Assembly (NCBI GenBank): GCA_937899865.1
Contig: CALBRH010000006.1
Location: 1 to 37,565 of the forward strand
Reading direction: 5' to 3'
Source of the DNA: an uncultured euryarchaeote
Lineage (GTDB): Archaea; Thermoplasmatota; Poseidoniia; Poseidoniales; Poseidoniaceae
Length of the DNA: 37,565 nt
A program made the translations under genes and the position numbers. A model generated the notes under the pieces. That model was not told where the DNA came from. It saw nothing but the letters and a program-made list of their open reading frames with translations, and made no database searches. Of this stretch, positions 16,868-16,980 are shown in pieces. Position 1 is the stretch's first letter, and every line of letters begins with the position of its first letter.

Positions 16868-16894
16868 TGGTAACTATTTGACATGCAAATAGTC
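16868..16894 (-). other. 9-bp hairpin followed by ACCA (microhelix-like) or palindromic operator
   Basis: GACTATTTG-CATGT-CAAATAGTT-ACCA, 11 nt before tRNA-Arg(TCG). Confidence 0.5.
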
Positions 16895-16920: not shown

Positions 16921-16980
16921 CTAACTACGACGGCGGAATCTCCGCTTCAAAGAATTATCAGGGAAAAAATCAATCCACAT
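16921..16980 (-). CDS. Putative Arg-rich leader peptide MWIDFFPDNSLKRRFRRRS
   Basis: GGTGA SD 7 nt before ATG; Arg codons CGG AGA CGC CGT CGT; stop 64 nt before the first tRNA-Arg. Confidence 0.6.
   Translation of the reverse strand: MWIDFFPDNSLKRRFRRRS

Follow-up and report, generated by a model that had tools for sequence, protein, structure and literature searches.

Organization of the Leader, tRNA Genes and Operon

The window analyzed here is a 37,565-nucleotide (nt) stretch of contig CALBRH010000006.1 (assembly GCA_937899865.1) from an uncultured euryarchaeote of the order Poseidoniales. It contains a short open reading frame (mini-ORF) that precedes two tRNA-Arg genes and a five-gene operon. 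The mini-ORF, its Shine–Dalgarno (SD) sequence, its promoter box, the tRNA genes and the operon all lie on the minus strand; the tRNA genes and the operon are collectively called the module, or cassette, below. The features of the locus are as follows.

17040–17025, minus strand: B recognition element (BRE)/TATA-like box, CCGAAAA followed by CTTTTTACG, centered about 49 nt 5′ of the ATG
16992–16988, minus strand: SD sequence GGTGA, with the ATG 7 nt further on
16980 (ATG)–16921 (end of TAG), minus strand: leader mini-ORF of 19 codons plus stop, product MWIDFFPDNSLKRRFRRRS
16969–16964, minus strand: T6 tract inside the mini-ORF
16945–16933, minus strand: 5-bp hairpin GCGGA/GAU/UCCGC, overlapping the Arg codons
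16944–16927, minus strand: Arg cluster CGG AGA TTC CGC CGT CGT late in the mini-ORF, the putative regulatory codons
16892–16874, minus strand: 7-bp spacer hairpin CTATTTG/CAAATAG, with no T run after it
16856–16782, minus strand: accessory tRNA-Arg(TCG), CCA encoded
16771–16697, minus strand: accessory tRNA-Arg(GCG), 10 nt after the first tRNA and sharing its D-arm
16682–13238, minus strand: five same-strand genes (144, 254, 70, 179 and 501 amino acids) after the tRNAs, with no CGN codon

The mini-ORF has four CGN codons (N, any nucleotide) close to the C-terminal end of its product. A preliminary description of this DNA had placed such an Arg(CGN)-rich mini-ORF ahead of the tRNA-Arg(TCG) and tRNA-Arg(GCG) genes, and every element that it named is present on this strand. 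The distance of 64 nt that it gave is exact when counted from the stop codon to tRNA-Arg(TCG), and the promoter box that it put about 45 nt upstream was located at the position listed above. The GGTGA motif, described there as the SD used elsewhere in the window, matches the SD sequences of the operon-internal genes both in type and in its 7-nt spacing. In the genome as a whole (GC content, 39.7%), CGN codons make up 42% of all Arg codons, and CGG (2.9% of Arg codons) and CGC (7%) are the rarest.

Conservation of the Mini-ORF and Its Promoter

The anatomy of this unit is conserved across the order Poseidoniales. When the DNA is compared with that of relatives, the intergenic sequence is alignable in only the two closest genomes, and a mini-ORF with SD, ATG and stop codon is found at every tRNA-pair locus of that comparison. 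Order-wide sampling anchored on the tRNA alone covered 301 genomes, 76 of which had a match, and retrieved 60 further loci. Among the 70 loci with enough upstream DNA to be counted, 63 contain an equivalent SD-led mini-ORF, representing two families and 11 genera. These mini-ORFs are 16–26 codons long and are placed 45–110 nt before the first tRNA-Arg (TCG, ACG or GCG). The SD is kept as GGTGA, GGAGG or GAGGG with unchanged spacing, and SD, ATG and stop codon are retained although the nucleotide sequence is unalignable between genera. The seven loci without a mini-ORF are mostly explicable by a tRNA located within the operon, an ORF just beyond the distance limits or a GTG start. The 52 distinct leader peptides fall into 22 clusters, in which the late arginines are nearly the sole common trait.

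The preliminary description proposed to judge its idea by whether SD, ATG, frame and CGN codons, as opposed to AGR codons (R, purine), are conserved, and the outcome across the order is clearly positive (63/70 loci; 78 CGN to 3 AGR, see below). Orthologous loci devoid of the ORF, SD or Arg run, or a run drifting freely to AGR, had been named as evidence to the contrary, and this is not the pattern seen. The ORF is also independent of the ABC operon that precedes it, since the ORF–tRNA unit persists in genomes with a different upstream context.

Promoter position is conserved as well. An AT-rich TATA-like box, often following CCGAAA, lies 36–62 nt 5′ of the ATG in all 22 cluster representatives, and in none of the 22 is there a TATA-like box between the mini-ORF and the tRNA. 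Ordinary tRNA genes of the genome have their box 30–40 nt from the mature 5′ end and lack an SD-led ORF, so this tRNA pair stands out in the genome by its long leader with an ORF. The leader and the tRNAs are probably co-transcribed from a start site placed by the position of the promoter box.

Several variants of this arrangement occur in individual lineages. In genus g12 (L040, L041, L043, L052–L054), a second ORF of 14–15 codons overlaps the mini-ORF stop codon via ATGA or TTGA and extends to a conserved TGA, about 30 nt short of the tRNA; some sublineages lack this ORF. In L005–L009, a spacer element about 20–35 nt before the tRNA is near-identical to the Arg-cluster end of the g12 mini-ORF, and might represent a degenerate duplicate or a competitor for base pairing. 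In a variant cassette of genus g4 (L015/L089), tRNA-Ile(GAT) precedes tRNA-Arg(GCG), and a CGN-bearing mini-ORF lies upstream of tRNA-Ile.

Codon-Specific Selection in the Leader

Late in the mini-ORF, selection acts on the choice of Arg codon. With one representative per cluster (n = 22), the last 12 codons include 78 CGN and 3 AGR codons, as opposed to 8 CGN and 15 AGR in the earlier codons of the same leaders. This preference persists in genomes in which AGR is the majority. As the first choice of ORFs relied on arginine density, which may introduce bias, the count was repeated with an Arg-blind rule (a strong SD 3–11 nt before an ATG). This rule yields one frame per locus and the identical ORF in 20 of the 22 representatives; the late codons of this set comprise 88 CGN and 3 AGR, and the CG dinucleotide is distributed over the three codon phases as 88:5:7.

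Such a cluster is rare by chance. For ATG-initiated ORFs of 10–45 codons at an equivalent position, with CGN counted among the last 12 codons, three or more late CGN codons are found in 20/22 representatives, compared with 3.8% of dinucleotide shuffles and 1/22 reverse complements. No example is seen before the other tRNAs of the genome (0/36), and random 220-mers of the genome reach at least three late CGN codons in 0.8% and at least four in 0.1% of cases.

These data bear on the idea that the leader is a structured non-coding element for pre-tRNA processing or stability, with an incidental open frame. Hairpins of individual lineages and long-range helices (see below) are in line with this idea, as is the invariance of CGN third positions within lineages. 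It would nevertheless seem highly improbable: the CG dinucleotides are phase-locked, SD, ATG and stop codon are kept in unalignable sequence, the reverse strand and the shuffles lack such ORFs, and no Rfam family matches.

The amino-acid sequence itself appears to be free to change. Within lineages, substitutions at the three codon positions number 73/58/73 in the leader and 49/43/38 in the spacer used as a control, and the third-position excess expected from purifying selection on amino acids is absent from the leader. This even distribution indicates that the peptide is not conserved as a protein, which is a signature of leader peptides. A functional Arg-rich micropeptide, serving as a partner or substrate of module proteins (e.g., the papain-like 179-amino-acid protein) or as an RNA-binding tail and merely co-expressed with the tRNAs, is accordingly a distinctly improbable alternative. 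The late arginines, which are the one conserved peptide trait, the weak aromatic-Asp motif ahead of them and the cysteine-peptidase-like gene in the operon would fit such a role, but the peptides are almost wholly different between genera, and any Arg codon would suffice for it, yet CGN is chosen 78:3 in a unit whose proteins use 94% AGR. An eL41-like ribosomal protein was considered as a further candidate and dropped, as the similarity is restricted to the basic tail and the N-terminal half of the peptide is acidic and hydrophobic.

The CGN-Free Operon

In the operon, selection on Arg codons has the opposite direction. The five genes in the window contain 42 AGR and no CGN codons, and the SD of the first gene begins 4 nt after the tRNA CCA. 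Across the order, homologs of these genes are located behind the tRNA pair, and the genes upstream vary. At 21 loci (including L077–L096), CGN accounts for 42 of 704 Arg codons (6%) in module genes and for 575 of 807 (71%) in flanking genes, and the four CGN codons are the sole outliers in module genes, with ratios of 0.04–0.12. A general CpG or GC bias is rejected as the cause of this avoidance, because module and flanking genes are equal in NCG codons (701 vs 650) and in GC content at third codon positions (0.49 vs 0.50). CGN is also avoided in relatives with 50–60% GC, in which the neighboring genes use CGN almost solely. Precisely the codon family eliminated from the operon is enriched in the leader.

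Searches of the five operon proteins against Pfam, NCBIfam, PADLOC and PHROG gave no match. Three of them are described below.

16682–16248, minus strand: 144-amino-acid protein, present in part of the cassettes only, with no Pfam GNAT match
15273–14734, minus strand: 179-amino-acid protein, the most strongly conserved of the module genes (mean column identity, 70%)
14743–13238, minus strand: 501-amino-acid protein, predicted model with a predicted local distance difference test (pLDDT) score of 80

The 179-amino-acid family has invariant Gln34, Cys39 and His130 in a papain/C39-like order, and language-model leads point to C39; a PDB profile search with this family gave no match. Its homologs are found in Poseidoniales sequences only, in 21 of 67 genomes, mostly of one family, and presence and absence are mixed within genera. 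No viral contig in IMG/VR was found to encode it. In the model of the 501-amino-acid protein, the N-terminal half (residues ∼1–232) is Rossmann methyltransferase-like (Z score up to 8.8), and the C-terminal part (residues ∼330–500) is macrodomain-like, resembling macroH2A (Z score, 9.0; root-mean-square deviation, 3.3 over 138 residues) and the PARP9 and PARP14 macrodomains (Z scores, 8.0–8.4). The predicted fold is suggestive of a protein that removes ADP-ribose or similar groups, perhaps from RNA. A fold search with the 254-amino-acid model gave nothing above a Z score of 3.4, and an exact-sequence look-up of the 144-amino-acid protein returned one genome record. In one genome (G016:C5; L081), the module genes are fragmented, with in-frame TGA codons interrupting the 179-amino-acid gene, which suggests decay of the cassette in this genome.

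Accessory tRNA-Arg Genes

Elsewhere, the genome contains a second, GC-richer and canonical gene each for tRNA-Arg(TCG) and tRNA-Arg(GCG). Canonical tRNA-Arg(TCG) is present in all 69 genomes of the order that are at least 90% complete, and the module tRNA in 24 of 66 good genomes. The module tRNA pair is a set of dispensable spare copies. The proposal that they are recoding tRNAs charged with another amino acid was dropped, as A20 and C35 are kept in both.

The anticodon loops of accessory tRNA-Arg(GCG) (L001–L076) are highly varied at positions 32, 33, 37 and 38, with more than 15 variants, some of which lack U33, and the first module tRNA alternates between TCG and ACG in close relatives. 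Three loop variants only are found among 19 sampled genes of canonical tRNA-Arg(TCG). In one genome (G041:C1:31780–31880), canonical tRNA-Arg(TCG) matches as two pieces 26 nt apart, in an intron-like manner.

A Model for Sensing of CGN Decoding

The mini-ORF is probably a translated, cis-acting leader that senses the capacity for decoding CGN codons and gates the expression of spare tRNAs and a CGN-independent operon. In this model, transcription from the promoter, which precedes the ATG by about 50 nt, would yield an RNA containing the SD, the mini-ORF, a structured spacer of 45–110 nt, one or two tRNA-Arg genes and the CGN-free operon. When CGN decoders are plentiful, a ribosome translating the mini-ORF would pass the late CGN cluster and terminate. 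When they are scarce, it would stall at the cluster, a few codons ahead of the stop codon, and the stall would alter the fate of the nascent leader by way of folding, factor-dependent termination or processing. Output of the spare tRNA-Arg and the operon would presumably increase as a result, and the operon could be translated without CGN decoding. Arginine starvation would stall ribosomes at AGR codons too, so the design points to a loss of CGN-reading tRNAs rather than of arginine as the signal.

The preliminary description had suggested a leader-peptide feedback sensor of the tRNA genes. Its comparative side is borne out by the data above, the attenuator elements that it noted are not conserved (see below), and control of tRNA output is a proposal here as well. 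The unit that it took to be regulated, the tRNA pair, now appears too narrow, given that these tRNAs are accessory copies and that the five-gene, CGN-purged operon belongs to the unit.

Leader RNA Structure and the Output Step

Several observations weigh against this model. First, the stretch from the ORF to the tRNA contains no terminator, either oligo-T or hairpin, that is conserved among the representatives. Second, hairpins that span the final Arg codons together with the stop codon occur in several lineages and are strong in only some of them. Third, when the leader is folded with the footprint of a stalled or terminating ribosome masked, the folds change relative to the free RNA with no switch shared among leaders. 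Fourth, a weak aromatic-acidic motif recurs ahead of the Arg cluster, which might reflect a role of the peptide or nascent chain. Fifth, the CGN codons are almost unvarying within lineages, third positions included, so an RNA-level constraint is also active there. Finally, modules with tRNA-Arg(TCG) alone retain CGY codons (Y, pyrimidine) in the leader, so the codon set and the tRNA set do not correspond one-to-one.

The attenuator elements noted in the preliminary description, the Arg-codon hairpin (16933–16945) and the T6 tract, lack general conservation. Both exist in the window; the T6 tract is lineage-specific, and the hairpin is not a general feature (mean z, −0.6; p, 0.07), so a universal Arg/stop hairpin is rejected in favor of a lineage-restricted one. 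The spacer of the window lacks any run of four or more T residues, and elsewhere T runs occur in some lineages only, at varying places. The spacer hairpin (16874–16892) is retained in locus L003 with one U-A to U-G change. A classical terminator/antiterminator is unsupported, since the hairpin is not general, the T runs are sporadic and no refolding is shared. The output step would be of another kind than a classical hairpin-plus-U terminator. Candidates are factor-dependent termination and a choice between processing and decay, either of which might be set by a ribosome arrested beside the stop codon.

One genus has a helix between the start-codon region and a stretch just ahead of the Arg cluster, with both sides changed in 4 of 8 pairs. 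For this helix, 82% of cells are paired; three test helices pooled reach 80%, versus 36–55% with slid partners. When the covariance models of Rfam 15 were run over the window, only the two tRNAs reached the gathering score; T-box, C/D small RNA (sRNA) and the other families were unmatched. A C/D-box sRNA was also dropped as a candidate because its boxes are not kept in L002 and L003.

The start-codon helix, with its two-sided changes, and the lack of a conserved terminator or switch are compatible with an ORF that is translated without acting as a CGN sensor, as is the conservation of SD, ATG and frame. Its translation could be constitutive, with a ribosome behind RNA polymerase shielding the long leader from factor-dependent termination, or could serve as a translational gate. 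We consider this unlikely: it leaves unexplained why the late codons are CGN 78:3 when the early ones are mostly AGR, and why exactly CGN is purged from the operon.

A broader interpretation, which is tentative and rather doubtful, builds on the CGN-sensing model: the whole cassette might be a codon-family-specific alarm and rescue system, that is, a circuit for tRNA-level immunity or a toxin–antidote circuit in archaea. CGN decoders would be lost, for example, when a virus, a toxin from a competitor or an enzyme of the cassette itself cleaves or modifies tRNA-Arg. The response would consist of spare tRNA-Arg with diversified anticodon loops and of CGN-free repair or effector proteins, among which could be the predicted papain-like peptidase and the predicted methyltransferase–macrodomain fusion. 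We know of no attacker of tRNA-Arg in this archaeal group.

Comparison with Known Systems

Full-text searches of the literature yielded no report of a leader peptide that precedes tRNA genes, nor of leader-peptide attenuation established in an archaeon. Enrichment in the leader and purging downstream concern one and the same codon family, which implies that decoding of a single codon family is monitored apart from the amino acid, and that spare tRNAs and an operon independent of CGN are kept in reserve for failure of CGN decoding. Through this locus, questions of tRNA homeostasis, of the coupling between transcription and translation and, possibly, of conflicts aimed at tRNAs become testable in uncultured archaea that are abundant in the sea.

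In bacteria, control of amino-acid synthesis by leader peptides, with the ribosome as sensor, is textbook knowledge. Like trpL, hisL, leuL, thrL, pheL and ilvL, the present mini-ORF is a short SD-led ORF in a 5′ leader, for which the ribosome would be the sensor, and, as in the trpL/hisL type, its late regulatory codons are cognate to the downstream supply while the rest of the peptide drifts. It differs from that type in its archaeal host, in its target, which is tRNA genes and an uncharacterized operon rather than biosynthetic enzymes, and in having no conserved terminator/antiterminator pair or U tract. In addition, the leader is specific to CGN and not AGR, which argues for sensing of tRNA isoacceptors rather than of the amino acid.

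Stalling leaders without a terminator are also known, namely tnaC with Rho, the mgtL/corA type and translational attenuation of the ermCL type. In these, a ribosome arrested near the end of the mini-ORF affects how accessible downstream RNA is or whether a factor gains access, and, with the terminator missing, an output of this type is the most plausible here. Whereas in tnaC, mgtL and ermCL the nascent chain serves to sense a small molecule, the supply of proline or a drug, the conserved trait here is a codon family. For FttA/aCPSF1, the archaeal counterpart of Rho, there is to our knowledge no link to any leader peptide. T-box riboswitches are similar in that the state of a specific tRNA is reported and genes of the translation apparatus are adjusted, but they are bacterial and bind uncharged tRNA directly, without an ORF.

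The module tRNAs also resemble those of phages. Phage-encoded tRNAs substitute for host tRNAs hit by anticodon nucleases (PMC10264068); there, as here, host isoacceptors are duplicated and anticodon loops are altered. In contrast to the phage tRNAs, the module is chromosomal and, judged by its 179-amino-acid marker, absent from IMG/VR, and it combines a putative codon-sensing leader with a codon-purged operon.
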